Shown here piece by piece: positions 4,772 to 25,365 of a stretch of DNA of 64,000 nt (position 1 is the first letter of the stretch; every line of letters begins with the position of its first letter). The DNA is from Bacillus sp. (in: firmicutes). Lineage in GTDB: Bacteria > Bacillota > Bacilli > Bacillales > Cytobacillaceae. Under the pieces are notes generated by a model. The model was not told the DNA's origin. It saw only the letters and a list, made by a program, of their open reading frames with translations, and searched no databases. The stretch lies in contig JBDOMM010000038.1 of assembly GCA_039832695.1 (NCBI GenBank), positions 265 through 64,264 on the forward strand, read 5' to 3'. The position numbers and the translations under genes are program-made.

Positions 4772-5302
4772 TTATTTTATTTCTTGTATTCTTTTGTACA
4801 GTTCTGCTTTTTCTTCATCTGATAACATTCTTTCTGCCATTGGAAATAGGACATTTTCTTCTTTGGAGAAATGTTCAGTTAAGATGAAGTAGGCATTTTG
4901 AATAAGCTCAGCTAACTTTTTCTTTTCCTCAGTGGTCGCTTCAGTACCTTGTGCTCTTTCTAAAAATGAAGCGATGTTTGCTTTCGCTTGATCATGTTCG
5001 TACTCCATTACAGCAATGGGACCTGAGGTTGTTCCAATATAAGCCCCCATCATTGGGAAAAGGACTCCTTCTTCTCGTTCGGAATGTGGATCTAATGCAG
5101 CCTTAAATTCTTTCACCTGTTCGATTAATTCTTTAAAATCTTGTTCTACATTTACTTCTTGATCAATGTTTTGAGTTAAAGTATATAGTTTCTCCAATTG
5201 CTCTAATAATGGAGGATGCTCACTTTTTAATTGTTTTAATCCTTCGCTTAATTCTCCCTGGGGCATACCGCCAAACGCACTCATGCAGCCACTCATTTTC
5301 AT
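4772..5302 (-). CDS. Hemerythrin/HHE cation-binding domain protein
   Basis: Duplicated H-x3-EE-x2-LFPM motif (HSEREEGVLFPM, HFSKEENVLFPM) plus EH residues. Confidence 0.85.
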   Translation of the reverse strand: MKMSGCMSAFGGMPQGELSEGLKQLKSEHPPLLEQLEKLYTLTQNIDQEVNVEQDFKELIEQVKEFKAALDPHSEREEGVLFPMMGAYIGTTSGPIAVMEYEHDQAKANIASFLERAQGTEATTEEKKKLAELIQNAYFILTEHFSKEENVLFPMAERMLSDEEKAELYKRIQEIK

Positions 5303-5357: not shown

Positions 5358-5373
5358 AGTGATAGAGGTCACA
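5358..5373 (-). promoter_or_regulatory. Fnr-type box (class II geometry) for the hemerythrin gene
   Basis: AGTGA-TAGAGG-TCACA against TGTGA-N6-TCACA; -10 TATACT at 5336-5331 on minus; centre 29.5 bp from the -10 start. Confidence 0.7.
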
Positions 5374-5520
5374 TTTCTGCGAAATGAGGGAATGATTGTA
5401 GAATTTATGTCATTTTTATGAAACCGTTTTAATTTTTTTGAAAATTTAACATTTATCACACAAAAATTGTTTGAAAGTTTCATATAATGAAGATAGAACA
5501 TGAAAGGGAGGTCCAAACAT

Positions 5521-5868
5521 ATGAAAACCCCAAATTATCATGACTTTTACCAAAAGGCATTAATCCCAATTGGTTATAACGATTTAATCGCCTTAAAGGA
5601 ATCAGATGCTTACATCCCTAACTCTCCTTACACACATTGGCTTATTGCCGTAGAAGGGGTCCAACTCCCACAGCCTACCATCTACTATAATTGGAAAGTT
5701 AGCATATACCCCGCTGATTGTGATGGCGACTTCAATTGGAAAAAACCTTACTACTGTTCTGTAAATATGGAATTAATGGATCAAGCCGATAAATTAGCTT
5801 CTTCATTAGTCTCTTCCGGCAAAAAAGATGAGCTTTCTTCCTCAACCCTTCTAGAAAAAATAAGTTAA
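5521..5868 (+). CDS. Hypothetical protein (115 aa)
   Basis: ORF with GGAGG RBS before ATG 5521 and TATAAT at 5483-5488; no family recognised. Confidence 0.7.
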   Translation: MKTPNYHDFYQKALIPIGYNDLIALKESDAYIPNSPYTHWLIAVEGVQLPQPTIYYNWKVSIYPADCDGDFNWKKPYYCSVNMELMDQADKLASSLVSSGKKDELSSSTLLEKIS

Positions 5869-5994: not shown

Positions 5995-6735
5995 CGGTAA
6001 AGTAGACTGCGTTTCTACGTTACCGATTTCCCTTTTTCACAAACACTTGGGTCACGGAGACCCTTTTTACGTGACCGTTTCCTCTTTTTCTCATTCACTT
6101 GGGTCACGTAGACCGCCTCTATGTTACCGTTTCCTCTTTTTATCAATCACTTGGGTCACGTAGACCGCCTCTATGTTACCCATTCCTCTTTTTCTCAATC
6201 ACTTGGGTCACGTAGACCCTTTCTACGTGACCGTTTCCTCTTTTTCTCAATCACTTGGGACACGTAGACCCTTTCTACGTTACCGTTTCCTCTTTTTCTC
6301 AATCACTTGGGTCATGTAGACCCTTTCTACGTTACCGTTTCCTCTTTTTCTCAATCACTTGGGTCACTTAGACCGCCTCTACGTTACCGTTTCCTCTTTT
6401 TCTCAATCACTTGGGTCACGTAGACCGTCTCTATGTTACCCATTCCCCTTTTTCTCAATCACTTGGGTCACGTAGACCGTCTCTATGTTACCCATTCCCC
6501 TTTTTCTCAATCACTTGGGTCACGTAGACCGCCTCTACGTTACCGTTTCCTCTTTTTCTCATTCACTTGGGTCACGTAGACCGCCTCTACGTTACCGTTT
6601 CCTCTTTTTCTCATTCACTTGGGTCACGTAGACCGCCTCTACGTTACCGTTTCCTCTTTTTCTCATTCACTTGGGTCACGTAGACCGCCTCTACGTTTCC
6701 CTTTCCTCTTTTTCACAATCACTTGGGTCAAGTAG
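5995..6735. repeat. 52-bp tandem repeat array, about 14 units, each with an 11-bp hairpin
   Basis: CACTTGGG recurs at 6044, 6096, 6148 ... 6720 (exact 52-bp period); consensus CACTTGGGTCACGTAGACCGCCTCTACGTTACCGTTTCCTCTTTTTCTCAAT. Confidence 0.97.
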
Positions 6736-6800: not shown

Positions 6801-6844
6801 AAAAAAGTGCTGTTTACGATTCCTCGTAAACAGCACTTTTTTTC
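6801..6844. terminator. Bidirectional intrinsic terminator after fixX
   Basis: AAAAGTGCTGTTTACGA-TTCC-TCGTAAACAGCACTTTT with flanking A/T tracts. Confidence 0.85.
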
Positions 6845-6846
6845 AT

Positions 6847-7131
6847 CTAAGCCAATCTAAATACGATTCCATGGCCACCCTTTGGATATTCCCACTTAAT
6901 GTTTTGATACGGACAACCAATTCGGCAGCTTCCACATTCATGACAGCCTTCGTAGCCAACCTGCATCCTTGTTCCTTCCCACTTATACACTTCTGCTGGG
7001 CAAAATACTGTACAAAGTTTATCAGGACATTGGGTCATGCACACATCATGATCGAGCACGGTCAAATGGGACTTCGTGTCACACTTAAAACGGAGAAGAT
7101 ACTGTTTTTCTTCAATATTCTTCGTTGACAT
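6847..7131 (-). CDS. fixX: Ferredoxin-like protein FixX
   Basis: CMTQCPDKLCTVFCP and CHECGSCRIGCP cysteine clusters; TAATG overlap with the fixC stop. Confidence 0.88.
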   Translation of the reverse strand: MSTKNIEEKQYLLRFKCDTKSHLTVLDHDVCMTQCPDKLCTVFCPAEVYKWEGTRMQVGYEGCHECGSCRIGCPYQNIKWEYPKGGHGIVFRLA

Positions 7132-8426
7132 TATTTCACCGCCTTCCAAGCACGATAAATATCTTGCAATACTCGAATCGTTCCTCTTTCCGAAGTGACG
7201 CTCTTCATAATCTGCTTTTGCTTTTCCCGTTTTGGCGTTCCATCTACAGTAAAGAATTTGCTCATGGCTTTGTTCATCATTGGTACATATTCATTGAAGT
7301 ATTGTGGATACTTCTCAAACGTATGTGCAGCATCCTTATATTTCTCTAAATCTTTAATAATGAAACTATCATATAATTTCTCACGGTAAAGATTTAAACT
7401 AGACTCTGAGAAATCTCCCCGATGTTTCGCCTCTATTACAGTTTCAGCGGCTAACATACCAGAATGCATCGCCATGTTTGAACCTTCACGGTGAATGGCA
7501 TTAACTAACTGAGCAGCATCACCAACAACGACTACTCCATTTCCAGCTACCTTAGGAACGGAGCGGTACCCGCCTTCTGGGATGAGATGGGCAAGATATT
7601 CTGCCGATTCTCCACCAGCAATTAATGGTTTTACCATAGGGTGTGTTTTCAAGTAATCTAGCAGCTCATACGGCTTTAATTTCGCTTTAATCATACTAGA
7701 AAGTGTGGTACCTACCCCAATGTTAATGCTTTCTTTATTTGTGTAAATAAAGGCTGTACCAAGATTTCCTTTTGTTGAATCCCCAAAGATTTCAATCGTA
7801 CAACCTTGACCATCTTCAAGGTTAAATCTGTCATTAATCTTTTCTTTTGGTAAATTTACCACTTCCATAACGGTTAGTGCTACTTCATCTGGTCGGAATT
7901 CTTTATGGAAGCCCAACTGTTTGGATAAGAGTGAGTTTACTCCATCAGCAAGCACGACAACATCCGCGTATACTTCTCCATCTGGGCGGTCCGTGCGCAC
8001 ACCTACCACCTTGCCATTTTCAACAATACACTCAGTAACAACAGTTTCGTTGATAAGAAGTGCTCCTGCCTGGACGGCTTTTTGAGCAAACCATTGGTCA
8101 AACTGCGCCCGAAGAACAGTAAAGTTATTATACGGCTCTACACCCCATTCAAGACCTTTGTAACCGAATGAAACGACCGATTCTTTATCCATCATCCAGA
8201 AACGCTGTTCAATCACAGGCCTTTCTAGAGGTGCTTCCTTCCAAAACTCAGGAATTAACTCTTCCATTTGTTTTCGGTATAGCACACCACCCATTACGTT
8301 TTTAGCACCTGGATATTCTCCACGTTCAATCAGTAACACGTTTAAGCCATTCCTTGCACATGTAAGAGCACAGGCTGTACCCGCAGGTCCCGCCCCAACA
8401 ATGATCACATCAAATTTTTCAGGCAT
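7131..8426 (-). CDS. fixC: FAD-dependent ETF:quinone oxidoreductase FixC
   Basis: GAGPAG Rossmann motif, ERGEYPGAKNVMGG, VGDAAQLVN; position in etfB-etfA-fixC-fixX order. Confidence 0.9.
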   Translation of the reverse strand: MPEKFDVIIVGAGPAGTACALTCARNGLNVLLIERGEYPGAKNVMGGVLYRKQMEELIPEFWKEAPLERPVIEQRFWMMDKESVVSFGYKGLEWGVEPYNNFTVLRAQFDQWFAQKAVQAGALLINETVVTECIVENGKVVGVRTDRPDGEVYADVVVLADGVNSLLSKQLGFHKEFRPDEVALTVMEVVNLPKEKINDRFNLEDGQGCTIEIFGDSTKGNLGTAFIYTNKESINIGVGTTLSSMIKAKLKPYELLDYLKTHPMVKPLIAGGESAEYLAHLIPEGGYRSVPKVAGNGVVVVGDAAQLVNAIHREGSNMAMHSGMLAAETVIEAKHRGDFSESSLNLYREKLYDSFIIKDLEKYKDAAHTFEKYPQYFNEYVPMMNKAMSKFFTVDGTPKREKQKQIMKSVTSERGTIRVLQDIYRAWKAVK

Positions 8427-9450
8427 AGCTTAATTCACCGCCTTTTTCAATTCTGAGTTGCTTAAATTGCTCGATAAGTTTAGGGACAATTTCTAAAGCG
8501 TCTCCTACAATTCCATAAGTCGCAACATCAAAAATCGGAGCATTCGGATCCTTGTTGATTGCGATGATGAATTCGGAATTCTTCATACCGACAACATGTT
8601 GTATAGCTCCAGAAATACCGATGGCAAAATAAATTTTTGGTGTAACTGTTTCTCCTGTTTGACCCACTTGCTGTTCGTGCGGGAGCCATCCGGCTTCTAC
8701 CACATCGCGTGTACCGCCAACACTGGCACCTATTGTATCTGCCAACTCATGTATTAGCTGGAAGTTTTTTAGATCTCCCATACCTTTTCCACCACATACG
8801 ATGACATGCGCCTCCGCTAAATTGGCTTTTTTTGTTACGTCATTCACAATTTGGAGTACTTTTGTACGCATATCCTCTTCTTGAAGTGAAATCTTTTCTT
8901 CAATGATTTCTCCAATTCTATTTGAATCCGGTTCTAAAGCCTTCATTACTTTCGGCCTTACTGTAGCCATTTGCGGACGATGCTTTTTACAAAGGATGGT
9001 TGCCATAATATTTCCGCCAAAAGCCGGTCTGCTTGCTTCTAGCAATCTATTAGTGGTATCTACATCCAGCATTGTCGTATCCGCAGTTAACCCCGTGTTT
9101 AAATCGGTTGCCACAGCGCTAGCTAAGTCCTTTCCATTTGGTGTTGCACCATATAGGATAATCTCTGGCAAGTATTTTTGAGCCAGTAGCATAACCCCTC
9201 TCATATATGACTCAGTCCGATACTGTTTTAACACTGGATGGTCAATGACATACACCACATCAGCACCAAAGGATATCACCTGGTTTGCTAAAGGTTTTAT
9301 CTCATTTCCGAGTAAAAAACCTGCTAATGGAACTTGGAGTTTATCTGCCAACTTCCTCCCGGCCCCAAGCAACTCTAGTGATACACCCTCAATTTTCCCA
9401 TCAGATTGTTCGATAAAGACCCAGACTCCACGATAATCGTCTAGATTCAT
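8419..9450 (-). CDS. fixB: Electron transfer flavoprotein alpha subunit FixB
   Basis: RPAFGGNIMATI, QVGQTG, GISGAIQHVVGM and AINKDPNAPIF motifs. Confidence 0.92.
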   Translation of the reverse strand: MNLDDYRGVWVFIEQSDGKIEGVSLELLGAGRKLADKLQVPLAGFLLGNEIKPLANQVISFGADVVYVIDHPVLKQYRTESYMRGVMLLAQKYLPEIILYGATPNGKDLASAVATDLNTGLTADTTMLDVDTTNRLLEASRPAFGGNIMATILCKKHRPQMATVRPKVMKALEPDSNRIGEIIEEKISLQEEDMRTKVLQIVNDVTKKANLAEAHVIVCGGKGMGDLKNFQLIHELADTIGASVGGTRDVVEAGWLPHEQQVGQTGETVTPKIYFAIGISGAIQHVVGMKNSEFIIAINKDPNAPIFDVATYGIVGDALEIVPKLIEQFKQLRIEKGGELSYA

Positions 9451-9484
9451 ATAAACCCCTCCTTGCAGCAGTAGATAATCCTTA

Positions 9485-10309
9485 TTATTTAGAAGACTGG
9501 AATGTTAAAAGGTCCTTTTTCTCCATTAAGACTTCCATGAGCTGCTCTACTTGCTCATCAGCAGTTCCCTCTAGTCTTTTTCCACCCTCTGGCCGTGGAG
9601 GTGTAAACATCTTACCAACAATGGTTGGCGAACCTTTTAGTCCTAGTTGGGAGCGATCGACATTCTCAAGATCACTTACTGCCCAGATGATTGGTTCATA
9701 TTTTGCTGCATTAATCATGTTTGGCATCGGTGAATAATCAATTTCATTAATTTCTTTTTCAACTGTTAACAAGCATGGCAGTTCTGACTGAATTAATTCA
9801 TATCCATTAGTTAATTTTCGTTTAATTAATACCGTTCTCTCTGCTTCATTCACTTCTGTTACCTCAATGACATTTGTTACAGGAGGAATATCCAGTCGTC
9901 TTGCGATACCAGGTCCTACCTGACCTGTATCTCCATCGATAGCATGTTTCCCACAAATCACAATATCTACTGGGAGTTCCTTACCAATTCTCTCTAAAGC
10001 TTTATATAAGGCATAACTTGTAGCAAGTGTATCTGCTCCGGCAAAAGCCCGATCAGTAATCAGATAGCCTCTATCTGCACCAATTTCAACACTTTTTTTA
10101 ATAACAGCTGTTGCCTGTGGCGGTCCCATTGACAGGACCGAAATGGTGCCACCTGTTTTTTCCTTAATTTTCACAGCTTCTTGAACAGCATGTGCATCAT
10201 AAGGATTCAAAATGGCCGGGGCACTCCGGCGGTCGAGTGTGTTTGTTTTTGGGTTGATTTTAATGATTTTTGTATCGGGTACTTGTTTGACACATACGAC
10301 AATGTGCAT
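9485..10309 (-). CDS. fixA: Electron transfer flavoprotein beta subunit FixA
   Basis: IVVCVKQVPD, NPYD, GADTLATS, DGDTGQVGP; start refined to ATG 10309 with GGAGG RBS. Confidence 0.92.
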   Translation of the reverse strand: MHIVVCVKQVPDTKIIKINPKTNTLDRRSAPAILNPYDAHAVQEAVKIKEKTGGTISVLSMGPPQATAVIKKSVEIGADRGYLITDRAFAGADTLATSYALYKALERIGKELPVDIVICGKHAIDGDTGQVGPGIARRLDIPPVTNVIEVTEVNEAERTVLIKRKLTNGYELIQSELPCLLTVEKEINEIDYSPMPNMINAAKYEPIIWAVSDLENVDRSQLGLKGSPTIVGKMFTPPRPEGGKRLEGTADEQVEQLMEVLMEKKDLLTFQSSK

Positions 10310-10345
10310 GTAGGACTTTCCCTCCTCCATATAAACTAAGATTGT

Positions 10346-10410
10346 TGAAAGCGTTTGCTTACTTTGGTTATAAAAAATGCTTTTATTAACGATATATGAA
10401 CCGTAACACA
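10346..10410 (-). promoter_or_regulatory. fixA upstream region: cre-like site (10346-10359), -10 TATAAC (10372-10367), degenerate Fnr-like box (10395-10410)
   Basis: TGAAAGCGTTTGCT against the cre consensus; TGTGT-TACGGT-TCATA on minus (2 mismatches). Confidence 0.45.
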
Positions 10411-10704
10411 AGCATAGTACCAAACAATGGTGGTTTTCTTTATTTTCTTTCTAAAATTCATCAAAAAATGGATAAGATCTGCAGCATAACTAATTTTGTG
10501 TAGATTCAAAGGCGTAGGTAAAAATAATAAATAAGTTGATGTCATAACTAATTGTGGTAAAATATGGAGTTAATCATGGTGTGAGTTTGTCTTTAAATAG
10601 TACTAATATAACTATAAGAAATATTGGGATATAAACAATGATAAAAATCACAGTCGTGTCTAAAAATGTAGCTTTTCTGCTGAAAACAAAAAAGGAGGAA
10701 AGAA

Positions 10705-15405: not shown

Positions 15406-15514
15406 CTTCTCATCTTTCAGCCAGTCGCTGCAAGAATTAGCACCGTGCTTAACTTTAGTTAAGTCGGTTGCCGGGCTTCATAGGGCTTTTCCCTCCACCT
15501 GCTCTTGATAAGAA
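15406..15514 (-). ncRNA. SAM-I (S-box) riboswitch controlling mtnWXBD
   Basis: CTTATCAAGAGCAGGTGGAGGGA..GCCC.ATGAAGCCCGGCAACCG...CGGTGCTAATTC...GAAAGATGAG; sigA promoter TTGACA(15591-15586)-N17-GATAAT. Confidence 0.96.
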
Positions 15515-17785: not shown

Positions 17786-17943
17786 CTCTTATCACGAGCA
17801 GGCTGAGGGATTTGGCCCTTTGAAGCCCAGCAACCGACCATACCACAACTAAAGTGGCGCGCTAAAGAATATGAATGCGCAGGAAACTTTATATGGCACG
17901 GTGCTAATTCCAACAGAAGGATGTCCTTTCTGAGAGATAAGAG
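17786..17943 (+). ncRNA. SAM-I riboswitch controlling mtnK, with enlarged P3
   Basis: CTCTTATC..GAGCAGGCTGAGGGA..GGCCC..TGAAGCCCAGCAACCG...CGGTGCTAATTCC...GAGATAAGAG; promoter TTGACA 17721-N18-TATAGT; terminator 17966-17996. Confidence 0.95.
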
Positions 17944-19985: not shown

Positions 19986-22280
19986 TTATAGAAGTGGATT
20001 CTCGTGTTTAGCCTTTAATCGCTGCCATCTTTTTTCAACTTCATCCTTAAACTCTTCTAAAATAGGTTTATTTTCATCTTTTAATAAGTGTTTTGTTTTG
20101 CCCATATATTTCAACCACTCTGCCAATGGTATCCGTTTGTTCTTTTCCTCCGGATTGTAAGTGATTGTTGTAACCCCTTGCTCTACTTCGTAAAGTGGGA
20201 AGAAACATGAATTTACAGCTGCTTCAACAATTGTGGCACCGTATCGATCATCTGATTTCCAGTTTAGCGGGCAAGTAATTAGAAGCTTTCCATATACAGT
20301 TCCTACATTCTGTGCGTACCACTGAGCTTTTGCCCCTTTTTTAATAAGATCTTGAGGGAATGCTTCTGAGCCTGTAAACACATAAGGGATATTGGTTGAT
20401 GCCATAATCTGTGCAGTATCCTTATGATGGAACGCCTTTCCTCTTTGCATTTTTCCGACTCCAGATGTACTTGTCATATGACCAATCGGTGTGGAATACG
20501 ACATTTGCGAACCAGTATTCATGTACCCTTCATTATCATACTCAAGCATTATTAGCTTATGTCCTCGAAGTGCCGTACCGATTGCTGAACCCATACCGAT
20601 ATCCATACCGCCATCTCCGGTAATCATAACAAACGTTGCATCATCAGATACTTGGATTTCACCGCGCCGCTTTAGTTCCATAAATGCCTCAACTGTACCC
20701 GATAGGGTTGCTGCACCATTTTGGAATAAGTTATGAATCATTGTTTGCTTATGTGAAGTATGCGGATAAGCTGTTGTTGTCACATAAGCACAACCTGTTT
20801 GGAATAATGTAACAATATCTCCTTCAATGCCTTTAAAGAACAGCTCCAGACCAGCAAATATGCCACATCCGGGACATGCACCATGACCTGAGGCAATCCT
20901 CTTTGGTTTACCAGTAAGGGCACGAAGCGGAGGGATTTTCACCTTTAACTTATTCGTTTCCTCGTCCATTTTCACATCAATTAATCCTGATTTATATACA
21001 TCACCATGTTGCGGTAAAATAACTGGCTTTAGTATTTTCTCAGGGTTACCTGGGATATGGCCATAGTAATCAAATGGTTTCTCGGCATAGCCTTTCGTCT
21101 TTGCTTCAATGGCCATTTCAAAAAACTTCTCAGCATCACTTGCATAGAAATCTTTTCCACCAAGGCCGAAAACACGGCTTAGTACAATAGTTTGGTTATT
21201 ACGGTCATCCTGTAAAGCCGACTTAACTTCATGCGTTAAGTTAGGGCCATTGGCTCCATAAGAATCTGCCCGTTCACCAATTAGCAAGGATTTTACATTT
21301 TTTAGTGCTTCTCGAATCTCCTTGGCAGGGAACGGACGAATAATATTCGGACTGATGACCCCGGCTTTAATTCCCTTGGCACGGAGCTGGTCCACTACAT
21401 CTTTAGCTGATTCTGCTGCAGAATTTAATAGGAAGAGAGCCACTTCTGCATCTTCCATTTTATATAAATCAAGAACAGGGTATTCCCTACCAGATAATTT
21501 TGCATACTCTGCTGCCACTTCTTTAAATACCTCTCCGGCATTATACATAGCTTCGGATTGTTGGAAGTGATTATTGATAAAGTCATCACCGCTCATATGT
21601 GCCCCAATAGTAACCGGTTTTTTAGGATCTCTGGCAAAATTATAATCAGTTGGGCAATCACCAACAAATTGTTGAACAACGCGGCGATCCTTGAAGTATT
21701 CTACCCTGCGCTTTTGATGGGAAGTGAAAAATCCATCATATGCAACAATCACCGGTAAGCGTACCTTAGAATGTTCAGCAATTTTTAATGCCATGATATT
21801 CATATCATATACAGCTTGAGGTGTTTTAGCAGTTAAAATAACCCATCCAGTGTTTAATGCATAGTAAAGGTCCGAATGGTCTCCTCGGATATCTAACGGT
21901 CCGCTAACTGAGCGTGTAACTAAATTCATTACCATTGGAAAACGTGTTCCTGATTGTACAGGTAGCTGTTCAATCATGTAGAGTAAACCATTCGCACTCG
22001 TAGCATTAAATACGCGTGCACCTGTTGCAGCTGCACCATAACAAATCCCGGCAGAACCATGCTCCCCATCTGCAGGGATTAACTTGATATCATGCTCACC
22101 ACGTGTTTTCATTTGATCCAGGAATTGAGCCACCTCAGTAGATGGTGTTATTGGGAAATAGCCCATGATATGATAATTGATTTGGGCTGCAGCCATTGCT
22201 GCCATTTCGTTACCTGATTCAAACGTTGAAATTTGCTCAGCCATCGCTTGTGTTGTTAATTTATCTTCCATAATTGCCAT
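19986..22280 (-). CDS. Pyruvate/2-oxoacid:ferredoxin oxidoreductase, fused alpha+beta subunit
   Basis: FPITPSTE and ADGEHGS (alpha); ACPGCG, GDGG, YDNEGYMNTG TPP motif and CP (beta). Confidence 0.9.
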   Translation of the reverse strand: MAIMEDKLTTQAMAEQISTFESGNEMAAMAAAQINYHIMGYFPITPSTEVAQFLDQMKTRGEHDIKLIPADGEHGSAGICYGAAATGARVFNATSANGLLYMIEQLPVQSGTRFPMVMNLVTRSVSGPLDIRGDHSDLYYALNTGWVILTAKTPQAVYDMNIMALKIAEHSKVRLPVIVAYDGFFTSHQKRRVEYFKDRRVVQQFVGDCPTDYNFARDPKKPVTIGAHMSGDDFINNHFQQSEAMYNAGEVFKEVAAEYAKLSGREYPVLDLYKMEDAEVALFLLNSAAESAKDVVDQLRAKGIKAGVISPNIIRPFPAKEIREALKNVKSLLIGERADSYGANGPNLTHEVKSALQDDRNNQTIVLSRVFGLGGKDFYASDAEKFFEMAIEAKTKGYAEKPFDYYGHIPGNPEKILKPVILPQHGDVYKSGLIDVKMDEETNKLKVKIPPLRALTGKPKRIASGHGACPGCGIFAGLELFFKGIEGDIVTLFQTGCAYVTTTAYPHTSHKQTMIHNLFQNGAATLSGTVEAFMELKRRGEIQVSDDATFVMITGDGGMDIGMGSAIGTALRGHKLIMLEYDNEGYMNTGSQMSYSTPIGHMTSTSGVGKMQRGKAFHHKDTAQIMASTNIPYVFTGSEAFPQDLIKKGAKAQWYAQNVGTVYGKLLITCPLNWKSDDRYGATIVEAAVNSCFFPLYEVEQGVTTITYNPEEKNKRIPLAEWLKYMGKTKHLLKDENKPILEEFKDEVEKRWQRLKAKHENPLL

Positions 22281-23293
22281 TAGAAACTACCTCCTGTTAC
22301 ATAAGGAAAGTTTTGCTTCACGCGGTTAGCGTCAGCATATCCAATCATTTCTCGTAGATCCCCAAGAGCATCGGTTGGACATGCCTCTACGCATTTTAAA
22401 CAGCCTTTACAATATTGATAATCAATTCCTTTTAGGAACATTTGCTTTCGGCCGCGCTTATCTTCTCCCTCTTCCCAAACGAAACAGAAATCTGGGCAAA
22501 CGTTGTCACAAGCCGCACAATTAATACATGTTTCTTGTTTGAACTCCGGAAGAAATCCTTGTCGTGAACCACTTAAATCCTTGAAGACACTATTTGCTTG
22601 AGCCAGGAGGACTCCTCCAATTTCCTGAGTTGTATACCCTAGCATTGGAAGTGGACGAGTGAATGACTTCCCCTCTGCCCCTTCAGGCACCTCATAAGTC
22701 TTAAATTTCACTTCATTATATCCTCGGTCAAACGTCCGGATATTTGGTTCAACCAGATGTGGGTATTTTTTTGTAAATGTTTTTCGAATAACATCTCTCA
22801 TTGATTCTGGATCTAAAAAGTCTAGTATTCTGTATAATGCTCCAAGCATTGCTGTATTTACTTTTGTTTTTTCTTCTACCGCAATGCTGAGTGCATCAAT
22901 GATAGCCAAAGTTCCATTTTCAAGCTGTAAATCCTTTTTCACTTCATCAAATTCTCTTGCTGTATTTACCAGAACAATTCCCTCAGCATCTAAGCCGCTT
23001 ACGACATTCACTGTCTTATATAAAGCCTCATGGAAAACTCCAACAATATGTGGTTGTTCAATTGGGCTATGATCTCTAATTTCTACATCCGGATCACAAA
23101 AACGGACAAAACTCTTTACGGGAGACCCTTTTTTCTCTGACCCATAGGATGAAAAGTTGGATCCTCTTAATCCAAGACTAAGAACACCTGCCTCAGCCAA
23201 CATTTTTCCAGCAAGGTTTGCCCCCAAGCCGCCAATTGATTCAAGTCGGATTTCAAAAAATCCAAGTTCATTTTTTTTCGGTAAAATAGCCAT
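22280..23293 (-). CDS. 2-oxoacid:ferredoxin oxidoreductase, fused gamma+delta subunit
   Basis: GGLGA, YGSEKKGSPV (gamma); two CxxCxxCxxxCP clusters (delta); start refined to 23293. Confidence 0.9.
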   Translation of the reverse strand: MAILPKKNELGFFEIRLESIGGLGANLAGKMLAEAGVLSLGLRGSNFSSYGSEKKGSPVKSFVRFCDPDVEIRDHSPIEQPHIVGVFHEALYKTVNVVSGLDAEGIVLVNTAREFDEVKKDLQLENGTLAIIDALSIAVEEKTKVNTAMLGALYRILDFLDPESMRDVIRKTFTKKYPHLVEPNIRTFDRGYNEVKFKTYEVPEGAEGKSFTRPLPMLGYTTQEIGGVLLAQANSVFKDLSGSRQGFLPEFKQETCINCAACDNVCPDFCFVWEEGEDKRGRKQMFLKGIDYQYCKGCLKCVEACPTDALGDLREMIGYADANRVKQNFPYVTGGSF

Positions 23294-23371
23294 ACTATCC
23301 CTCCCCATTGTTAAAAACGCATAAAAATTAACTTCCCCACGAGTATTGTATGGCATTCTACTTTTTAAAGC

Positions 23372-23387
23372 TGTGACAAAAGTCAAA
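23372..23387 (-). promoter_or_regulatory. Fnr-type box (class II geometry) for the oxidoreductase operon
   Basis: TGTGA-CAAAAG-TCAAA; -10 TACAAT at 23350-23345 on minus, centre 29.5 bp from the -10 start. Confidence 0.7.
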
Positions 23388-23625
23388 CAACAAAGAAAAT
23401 ATTTGAAACACATTCATATACGGTTTAAAAAACATTAATATAACTGGATTTATTCCAATAAATAATTATATAACAGAAAATCAGTTGTAGTATAACAGAG
23501 CGTTCTACCTGTAAACTAAACATTATCCGATGAATCCAACTTGTTAGAACTGTTTATCAGCTATCATTTTTGTTGAAAATAAGGTATAATTATATTTTGT
23601 TTTATTATTGAAAAGGAGCTAGTTT

Positions 23626-25365
23626 ATGAATGTAATTTGTTCGACGTTGAATGCAAAGTTCATACACACAAACCTTGCTATTCGCTATTTAAAGGCTTAT
23701 GCCGCTCCCGAATTTAAGATACAGCTTAAGGAATATACAATTAAAGATCCCGTAATAAACATTGTTTCAGATCTTTATCAATCAAAACCGAATGTGATTG
23801 GGTTTAGTTGTTATATTTGGAACATCGAAGAAACACTTAAAGTGGTCAATATGCTTAAAAAAATTGACCCATCTATCATTATTGTCTTGGGGGGGCCTGA
23901 GGTCAGCTATGATACGATGGAATGGATGGAAAAATATCCTGAGATAGATTTTATTGTAATGGGTGAAGGTGAACTTACCTTTAAACAATTGCTAACAGAA
24001 ATTGAAACTTCAAACGATTTCCGCAATGTTCATGGTATCGCGTACCGATCTGCTGACAAGGTTCTTATCACTCCACAAAAGAATAAGCTTGACCTCAAAG
24101 AACTTCCATCCCCTTACCGCCTTCCAGAAGATATTTCTGATTTAGGCAAGAGGGTAACTTATATCGAAACTAGCAGGGGCTGTCCATTTAGCTGCCAATT
24201 TTGTCTCTCATCCATTGAGGTTGGGGTTCGATATTTTGACAGAGAAAAAATCAAGTCAGATATTAGGTATCTAATGGAGCATGGAGCAAAAACGATTAAA
24301 TTTGTTGACCGTACCTTTAATATCAGCCGAAGCTATGCAATGGAAATGTTCCGTTTCTTAATTGATGAACACCATCCAGGCACAGTTTTTCAATTTGAAA
24401 TCACTGCCGACATCATGAGACCAGAAGTAATTAATTTTCTTAATCAGGAGGCTCCAAAAGGGTTATTCCGATTTGAAATTGGGGTTCAATCAACCAATGA
24501 TTACACCAATGAGCTGGTTATGCGGAAACAAAATTTTGCCAAGCTCACTAGGACGGTAACGATGGTTAAAGAAGGCGGCAAAATAGATCAGCATCTCGAT
24601 TTAATTGCTGGTCTTCCAGAAGAGGATTATTCTTCCTTCCGAAAAACTTTTAATGATGTATTCGAGATGAGACCTGAGGAATTACAATTAGGGTTCTTAA
24701 AGATGCTTCGTGGGACTGGTGTGCGCTTGCGTGCAAAAGAACAACAATATGTTTATATGGACCATTCTCCATATGAAATTCTGAGCAATAATGTTCTTTC
24801 CTTTGACGACATTGTAAGAATTAAACAGGTGGAAGATGTATTAGAAAAATACTGGAATGACCACAGAATGGATCACACAGTCGAATATTTGGTCAGTCAT
24901 GTATTTTCTTCTCCTTTTGATTTCTTTCAAGAGTTCGGCAGCTATTGGGATGAACGCGGTTGGTCAAGAATTGGTCATCAGTTAGAGGACTTATTCCGTA
25001 GGCTGTACTCATTCCTAGAACAAAAAAAGGTGAAAAGCCTTGATGTCGTGGCTGGTTTAATGAAATATGATTACTTAATCAATCACAAATACAAGCCTAG
25101 AAAACCTTGGTGGGAAGCTAGTTTTGAAAAAGGCCAACGCAACGAATTCTATAAACAAATCATTGAGAATCCTAACATCTTAGGAAATGAATTCGTCAAA
25201 TTAAACCTTGAGGAAAAGGAATTATTTAAGCATACGATGCTAGATGAGATTTCATTTAATTTATCACATTATTTAGAGACGGGAGAAATTGTTAACCAGC
25301 CTTCAAGCTTGTTGGCATACTTTAATCCGACAATTAACCAAACCCTTATCTTTTCTACGAAATAA
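23626..25365 (+). CDS. B12-binding radical SAM protein (DUF4080-type C-terminus)
   Basis: N-terminal GFSCYIWN/GGPEVS cobalamin-binding-like domain; SRGCPFSCQFC cluster motif. Confidence 0.88.
   Translation: MNVICSTLNAKFIHTNLAIRYLKAYAAPEFKIQLKEYTIKDPVINIVSDLYQSKPNVIGFSCYIWNIEETLKVVNMLKKIDPSIIIVLGGPEVSYDTMEWMEKYPEIDFIVMGEGELTFKQLLTEIETSNDFRNVHGIAYRSADKVLITPQKNKLDLKELPSPYRLPEDISDLGKRVTYIETSRGCPFSCQFCLSSIEVGVRYFDREKIKSDIRYLMEHGAKTIKFVDRTFNISRSYAMEMFRFLIDEHHPGTVFQFEITADIMRPEVINFLNQEAPKGLFRFEIGVQSTNDYTNELVMRKQNFAKLTRTVTMVKEGGKIDQHLDLIAGLPEEDYSSFRKTFNDVFEMRPEELQLGFLKMLRGTGVRLRAKEQQYVYMDHSPYEILSNNVLSFDDIVRIKQVEDVLEKYWNDHRMDHTVEYLVSHVFSSPFDFFQEFGSYWDERGWSRIGHQLEDLFRRLYSFLEQKKVKSLDVVAGLMKYDYLINHKYKPRKPWWEASFEKGQRNEFYKQIIENPNILGNEFVKLNLEEKELFKHTMLDEISFNLSHYLETGEIVNQPSSLLAYFNPTINQTLIFSTK

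Follow-up and report, generated by a model that had tools for sequence, protein, structure and literature searches.

We analyzed a 64,000-nucleotide stretch of DNA from a bacterium recorded as Bacillus sp. (GenBank assembly GCA_039832695.1), referred to below as the window, which carries a fixABCX operon encoding the two subunits of an electron-transferring flavoprotein (ETF; FixA and FixB), an ETF:quinone oxidoreductase subunit (FixC) and a ferredoxin-like protein (FixX). The data suggest, at a probability of roughly 0.7, that this locus specifies a functional, membrane-associated EtfABCX complex of the FixABCX type, belonging to the group-2 bifurcating ETFs, in a non-diazotrophic Neobacillus. 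The operon itself is unsurprising; the one new point is its linkage to a companion gene, here called h122.

Listing of the open reading frames (ORFs) together with Pfam and NCBIfam scans located all four genes, in agreement with the complete operon reported in the original prediction. All four lie on the minus strand. fixA (9485–10309) encodes the ETF small subunit of 274 residues (Pfam ETF, 1e-38), fixB (8419–9450) the large subunit of 343 residues (Pfam ETF and ETF_alpha), fixC (7131–8426) a flavin adenine dinucleotide (FAD)-dependent ETF:quinone oxidoreductase subunit of 431 residues (NCBIfam FixC-type subfamilies, 1e-99 and 1e-95), and fixX (6847–7131) a ferredoxin-like subunit of 94 residues, which matches Pfam Fer4_ETF_QO and FixX and harbors two [4Fe-4S] cluster motifs. 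The span first noted, 6847–10309, runs exactly from the fixX stop codon to the fixA ATG. Family alignments place the fixA start at this ATG (10309) and not at the upstream TTG of the mechanically listed ORF, and a ribosome binding site, GGAGGAGGG, precedes it at 10320–10328. The fixB and fixC reading frames share 8 nt, and the fixC stop and fixX start are combined in the sequence TAATG. Directly 3′ of fixX is an intrinsic terminator (6801–6842, minus strand) consisting of a 19-pair stem followed by a T run; given its A-tract and T-tract flanks, it is probably bidirectional. The contiguity of the four genes, with a first gene led by a ribosome binding site, close or overlapping starts and stops and one terminator, confirms that fixA-fixB-fixC-fixX is a compact, translationally coupled operon. 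The ratio of nonsynonymous to synonymous substitution (dN/dS) compared to one congener was 0.02–0.06 for all four, indicating that these are real genes under purifying selection.

To place the ETF subunits, we compared them with proteins of the Protein Data Bank (PDB). The best match to FixA is chain A of the Thermotoga maritima EtfABCX structure (7KOE), at 3.9e-66, compared to 7e-22 for human ETF-β. Specifically, FixA scored 173–226 bits against bifurcating ETFs (7KOE, CarD, Clostridioides difficile, LctB and Acidaminococcus fermentans) and 66–81 bits against the ETFs of human, Paracoccus and Methylophilus; these non-bifurcating proteins gave two- to three-fold fewer bits than the bifurcating relatives. 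FixB likewise ranks bifurcating above group-1 ETFs, matching CarE (5e-104), then 7KOE_B (2.6e-93), with human ETF-α at 5.5e-44; it does not have an N-terminal ferredoxin domain. FixC matched 7KOE_C best, over its full length (1.3e-132), and FixX matched 7KOE_D best (5.7e-28). In FixX, the motifs CxxxCxxxxxCxxxCP and CxxCxxCxxxCP comprise eight cysteines, each aligned with a cysteine of 7KOE_D.

The mutagenesis study of the T. maritima enzyme (PMC10734219) defines RPxFGG, SPTxV and RxGV as three motifs that surround the bifurcating flavin in group-2 ETFs. The arginine of RPxFGG is in contact with N5 of this FAD, and ferredoxin reduction requires it, while the SPTxV loop of the small subunit wraps this FAD (PMC10734219). 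The segment RPAFGGNIMATI, singled out in the original prediction as typical of bifurcating ETFs, is exactly FixB residues 141–152 and contains RPAFGG at residues 141–146. In FixA, GLKGSPTIV (residues 223–231, with SPTIV from 227) aligns with GFFGSPTRV of 7KOE_A; the spacing of the first glycine is off by one position relative to the GxxSPTxV motif as written in PMC10734219. These features, taken with the match scores, support FixAB being an ETF of the group-2, electron-bifurcating kind, as originally proposed, and place it outside the non-bifurcating group.

The genome contains two further ETF loci, one of which served as an internal control. This housekeeping ETF, on contig C43, sits in a Bacillus subtilis-like context (lcfA-fadR-fadB-etfBA-trxA-uvrC) and does not contain RPAFGG; its small subunit finds Paracoccus as its best PDB match, with human also high and 7KOE near the bottom. 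The third ETF pair (C47:106337–108187) is of the group-2 type, with RPAFGG and SPTIV and 7KOE as its best PDB match. Neither fixCX nor a dehydrogenase gene lies next to the C47 pair, and its large subunit is sister to the FixB of a second complete fixABCX found in a congener.

The window corresponds to contig C24 of a 4.97-Mb genome assembled in 55 contigs and 99.98% complete. FixC homologs at 91–94% identity bear Neobacillus names (N. niacini, N. drentensis, N. vireti and N. mesonae), and the host is a Neobacillus, soil-dwelling and without the capacity for nitrogen fixation. No match to the Oxidored_nitro (nifDK) family was found in the genome, and genome-wide matches to the NifH family were weak P-loop hits, bearing out the claim that the operon has no nitrogenase context. 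The genome-wide search also returned no NiFe or FeFe hydrogenase. FixX is the sole Fer4_ETF_QO (PF05187) match, indicating that the genome has no canonical ETF:quinone oxidoreductase (ETF-QO). It was likewise correct that no acyl-CoA dehydrogenase gene adjoins the operon: the genome has 11 such genes and contig C24 none, and no dehydrogenase gene adjoins fixABCX, either in this window or at 26 related loci. The low-potential partner, which the original prediction had called unexplained, does have candidates: one Fer-type ferredoxin, two short flavodoxins (in addition to a CysJ-like protein) and three POR_N loci (2-oxoacid:ferredoxin oxidoreductase, OFOR), one of them inside the window. The genome also encodes NarG (1809 bits) and at least a dozen Crp/Fnr-family regulators. 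Three Fnr paralogs, from the set at C41:114379, C41:121430, C43:189024 and C14:180351, end in the CxxCxxxxC cluster of Bacillus Fnr. A fourth Crp/Fnr protein has a cysteine-rich N-terminal start, MCCDPCCSHASSC, and adjoins the flavodoxin gene at C14:181196.

To determine how widely the operon is distributed, we surveyed an even sample of 201 Bacillales genomes from 99 genera, calling FixC at E ≤ 1e-60. FixC was present in 57 genomes and in 30 genera, and FixC orthologs were found in all 24 sampled congeners. The gene order Spo0E-(ZIP)-fixABCX-h122-hemerythrin-MFS-APH-MarR-M3 peptidase is largely conserved in eight Neobacillus loci. This conservation of order, together with the presence of FixC throughout the congeners and across genera, shows that fixABCX at this locus is ancestral and not inserted. 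The statement that the operon interrupts a spo0E-mhqR backbone thus holds relative to B. subtilis and fails within Neobacillus, where the position is conserved. A recent insertion or island was ruled out by the conserved position in congeners and by a GC content that is only mildly raised (0.40–0.44 in the operon compared to ∼0.36 in its flanks). One FixC match in the Bacillales sample (G124:C2:1510508–1511551) covers residues 84–431 only and contains an in-frame TGA; this copy is probably decaying.

Approximately 110 bp upstream of fixA is conserved in the genus, and a block at 10345–10410 (minus strand), conserved in seven Neobacillus loci, is a candidate control region. It contains, all on the minus strand, a candidate Fnr-like box with two mismatches (TGTGT-N6-TCATA, 10395–10410), a candidate −10 element (TATAAC, 10367–10372) located 30.5 bp from the center of that box, and a catabolite-responsive element (cre)-like site, AAGCAAACGCTTTCAA (10345–10360), which agrees with the cre consensus at 15 of 16 positions. 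Seven cre-like sites of that quality occur in the window, compared to 2.5 expected. A search of Rfam gave no match in the fix leader. Both types of site also occur upstream of a nearby hemerythrin/RIC-like gene with YtfE/DnrN-type matches (4772–5302, minus strand), where the interval 5358–5433 holds an Fnr-like box with one mismatch (5358–5373) and a cre-like site (5418–5433).

What is shown directly is which subunits are encoded, which motifs they carry and how they are conserved; the reaction steps are modeled by homology with the enzymes of T. maritima, Pyrobaculum aerophilum and Azotobacter vinelandii. Cells of the Bacillus type use menaquinone. In the mechanism that we propose, NADH would reduce the bifurcating FAD in FixA, from which one electron would pass downhill by way of the FixB FAD, the two [4Fe-4S] clusters of FixX and the FixC FAD to menaquinone, while the second, low-potential electron would reduce ferredoxin or flavodoxin. 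This assignment follows characterized homologs, in which FixA binds the bifurcating FAD and oxidizes NADH and FixB carries the electron-transferring FAD. The complex could then feed NADH electrons into the menaquinone pool when the cell respires anaerobically, NarG being present, and could provide reduced ferredoxin or flavodoxin to ferredoxin-dependent enzymes such as the three OFORs and radical-S-adenosylmethionine (radical-SAM) enzymes. Anoxia may switch on its expression through the Fnr-like box, and good carbon sources may repress it through the cre-like site in the leader. It is NarG, the Fnr paralogs and the conserved fixA leader with its Fnr-like and cre-like sites that point to this combination of anaerobic respiration and ferredoxin supply.

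Several observations weigh against this interpretation. The FixA segment that aligns with RxGV reads RRSA: the arginine is kept, while glycine is replaced by serine and valine by alanine. RxGV, which is the Arg38 region of T. maritima, holds for "most" group-2 sequences (PMC10734219), and this position reads RRTA in the C47 ETF paralog. The group-2 assignment draws on motifs and match scores, and the Neobacillus and Bacillales complex, unlike the T. maritima enzyme, is known from its genes. The OFOR type found in the window is missing from half of the FixC-positive genomes (28/57), so that no single ferredoxin consumer is implied. As for control, matches to TGTGA-N6-TCACA with up to two mismatches are not enriched in the window (33 compared to 30 expected), and the case for the fixA box thus comes from its conservation and position only. 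Moreover, an alternative extended −10 element, TGgTACTAT (10414–10422), lies upstream of the Fnr-like box; if this element is used, the box would lie downstream of its promoter and act as an operator rather than an activator site.

An alternative that is unlikely but still has to be reckoned with is that the locus encodes a plain, non-bifurcating ETF:menaquinone oxidoreductase, in which FixAB would be fed by one or more of the acyl-CoA or other flavin dehydrogenases, FixCX would hand the electrons on to menaquinone and no ferredoxin would be reduced. Such a system would resemble the Fix/Ydi/Ygc-type systems of Escherichia coli, which have dedicated dehydrogenases. The absence of a canonical ETF-QO, which leaves FixX with the only Fer4_ETF_QO domain, would suit this arrangement, as would the 11 acyl-CoA dehydrogenase genes, a cre-like leader site of the kind expected of a catabolic gene and the departure of RxGV from its group-2 form. 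However, no dehydrogenase is encoded beside fixABCX here or in the related loci. Scores of the proteins are also far higher for bifurcating ETFs than for the E. coli-type FixA/FixB models of NCBIfam, which match weakly (NF002888 at 78 bits, with a cut-off of 219, and NF002889 at 124 bits, with a cut-off of 549), and the RPxFGG arginine needed for ferredoxin reduction in T. maritima is in place. In addition, B. subtilis, examined as a control, has neither FixCX nor an ETF-QO domain, indicating that bacilli reoxidize the housekeeping ETF by another route.

Considerably less probable is that the complex works mainly as the partner of the neighboring OFOR, the two forming one anaerobic module that balances the ferredoxin of 2-oxoacid oxidation or synthesis. 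This OFOR is a two-chain enzyme of the Por/Vor type encoded on the minus strand at 19986–23413, 9.7 kb upstream of the fix operon in the same window; its γ-δ chain (22280–23413) and α-β chain (19986–22280) match Pfam POR, Fer4, POR_N, PFOR_II and TPP_enzyme_C and NCBIfam PorA, PorB, PorC and PorD. Proximity speaks for such a partnership, and so does an Fnr-like box with one mismatch upstream of the OFOR operon (23372–23387). Among the 201 genomes, 29 carry both FixC and this OFOR, 11 OFOR only, 28 FixC only and 133 neither, so that FixC is present in 29/40 OFOR-positive compared to 28/161 OFOR-negative genomes, an odds ratio of ∼12 in which related genomes are not independent samples. Against it stand the 28 and 11 genomes that have one without the other. 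The two loci lie 4–20 kb apart only in several related families and are unlinked in more distant genomes, which suggests shared synteny rather than coupling. Furthermore, the confurcating reaction, from menaquinol to NAD+, would be thermodynamically unfavorable according to the standard potentials given in PMC10734219. A link between OFOR and fix is therefore possible and not required. The PAS histidine kinase "c10," a recurrent neighbor of the OFOR, was judged unrelated to the fix operon, and a B12-binding radical-SAM/DUF4080 gene (23626–25365, plus strand) is divergent from the OFOR.

The classical Fix role, in which the electrons would go to a nitrogenase encoded elsewhere, has in its favor the family name and three sampled Bacillales genomes, all of one genus, that are the only ones of the 201 with nifDK-like genes and are all FixC-positive; it has next to no chance of applying here and, barring nif genes in unassembled sequence, is refuted for this genome by the genome-wide search, while 54 of the 57 FixC-positive Bacillales genomes also lack nifDK-family genes.

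We then examined what accompanies fixABCX by clustering the neighboring ORFs of 27 fix loci. One of these, h122 (5521–5868, plus strand), encodes a 115-residue protein of no known family and is convergent with fixX; it is present in 19 of the 27 loci and is the only neighbor that persists outside close relatives. With a profile built from 17 members, h122 was detected in 38 genomes of the Bacillales sample of 201. Every one of these is FixC-positive, and the 144 FixC-negative genomes gave no hit. h122 lies within ∼12 kb of fixC in 36 of the 38 positive genomes. Most loci have h122 and fixX tail to tail with a gap of 127–290 bp; in five genomes h122 follows fixX on the same strand, and a genome with two fixABCX operons has a copy of h122 beside each. 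h122 also tracks FixC exactly in four GTDB families in which FixC presence is mixed. However, it is absent from 19 FixC-positive genomes, indicating that it is dispensable.

The residues F9, Y10, D21, H39, L41, G46, W58 and P76 are invariant in h122. Searches of Pfam and NCBIfam gave no matches, even at permissive thresholds, and database annotation of the protein is limited to "hypothetical protein." An AlphaFold2 model was confident (predicted local distance difference test score of 86), and comparisons with a protein atlas, with the PDB by Foldseek and in a full VIA-align scan yielded no informative match. The best of these, a capsid chain of phage SPO1 with a Z of 7.5, was rejected as being inside the noise range of the tool.

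From these patterns, h122 is probably an accessory factor of the fix complex. More tentatively, h122 may be a dedicated, lineage-specific accessory of the Bacillales EtfABCX, acting for example in assembly, in regulation or in docking of the acceptor; this falls short of an even chance, and it draws on the findings that h122 occurs only in fixABCX genomes, is kept beside fixX while all other neighbors change, has been duplicated along with the operon and is sometimes co-directional with it. If h122 is indeed an accessory, the Bacillales enzyme would be a five-component system. h122 is a specific candidate partner of EtfABCX. In the window, a 52-bp tandem array (6014–6735, 13.9 copies, 92% match) separates h122 from the fixX terminator. 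Owing to this array, the gap between h122 and fixX is 978 bp, compared to ∼140 bp in the closest congener; its absence from that gap indicates that the array is strain-specific.

EtfABCX complexes in organisms that lack nitrogenase have already been published, for T. maritima, Pyrobaculum, Moorella and Caldalkalibacillus (PMC6085437, PMC10734219, PMC7561548, PMC13391211). Poudel et al. found Fix homologs in 178 genomes, 33 of them Firmicutes, with 53% of the homologs coming from aerobes, and stated that the role of Fix in non-diazotrophs is not known (PMC6085437). In the non-nitrogen-fixers P. aerophilum and T. maritima, EtfABCX bifurcates NADH electrons to ferredoxin and menaquinone (PMC10734219), and in the aerobic Bacillus relative Caldalkalibacillus thermarum, the presence of a Fix-class enzyme has been called "curious" (PMC7561548). 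In Moorella thermoacetica, EtfABCX transcripts rose with log2 fold changes of +3.7 to +4.3 during dimethyl sulfoxide respiration, the electrons being bound for menaquinone (PMC13391211).

The closest of these systems is the T. maritima enzyme (7KOE; PMC10734219), which shares with that of Neobacillus its four subunits, gene order, similar subunit lengths and absence of an N-terminal ferredoxin domain, as well as RPxFGG, SPTxV and the two FixX cluster motifs, and which provides the best or near-best match for each chain. Both hosts are menaquinone-type, non-nitrogen-fixing bacteria. However, T. maritima is a hyperthermophilic fermenter, whereas the present host is mesophilic, spore-forming and facultatively anaerobic, and the Neobacillus system differs in its RRSA at RxGV and in its lineage-specific companion h122. 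M. thermoacetica (PMC13391211) is, like Neobacillus, a Firmicute with menaquinone and anaerobic respiration, but it is an acetogen in which carbon monoxide dehydrogenase/acetyl-CoA synthase creates a large ferredoxin demand, and such a pathway is not known from the present analysis of Neobacillus. The FixABCX complexes of A. vinelandii and Rhodopseudomonas palustris have the same subunit architecture and a presumed bifurcation from NADH to quinone and flavodoxin or ferredoxin; in contrast to the Neobacillus complex, they serve a nitrogenase and use ubiquinone. The FixABCX, YdiQRST and YgcNOQR systems of E. coli share the four-gene layout of etf with fixCX in an organism without nitrogenase, but they adjoin substrate pathways of their own (carnitine, acyl-CoA), and their NCBIfam models are the ones that match the Neobacillus proteins weakly.

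EtfABCX is one of few electron-bifurcating enzymes in oxygen-tolerant organisms. In the Bacillales sample, roughly one genome in four has the T. maritima-type complex, nearly always without a nitrogenase. This genetically tractable, mesophilic group offers a setting in which to ask about the low-potential acceptor and about the role in anaerobic respiration. The wide spread in Bacillales, the candidate control by Fnr and CcpA and the h122 linkage add modest interest to what is otherwise an expected operon. Elsewhere in the window, the only Rfam matches were two SAM-I riboswitches, at 15407–15514 (minus strand) and 17786–17943 (plus strand), which flank methionine-salvage genes (mtnW/X/B/D and mtnK); the latter riboswitch spans 158 nt, compared to the 108 positions of the model.

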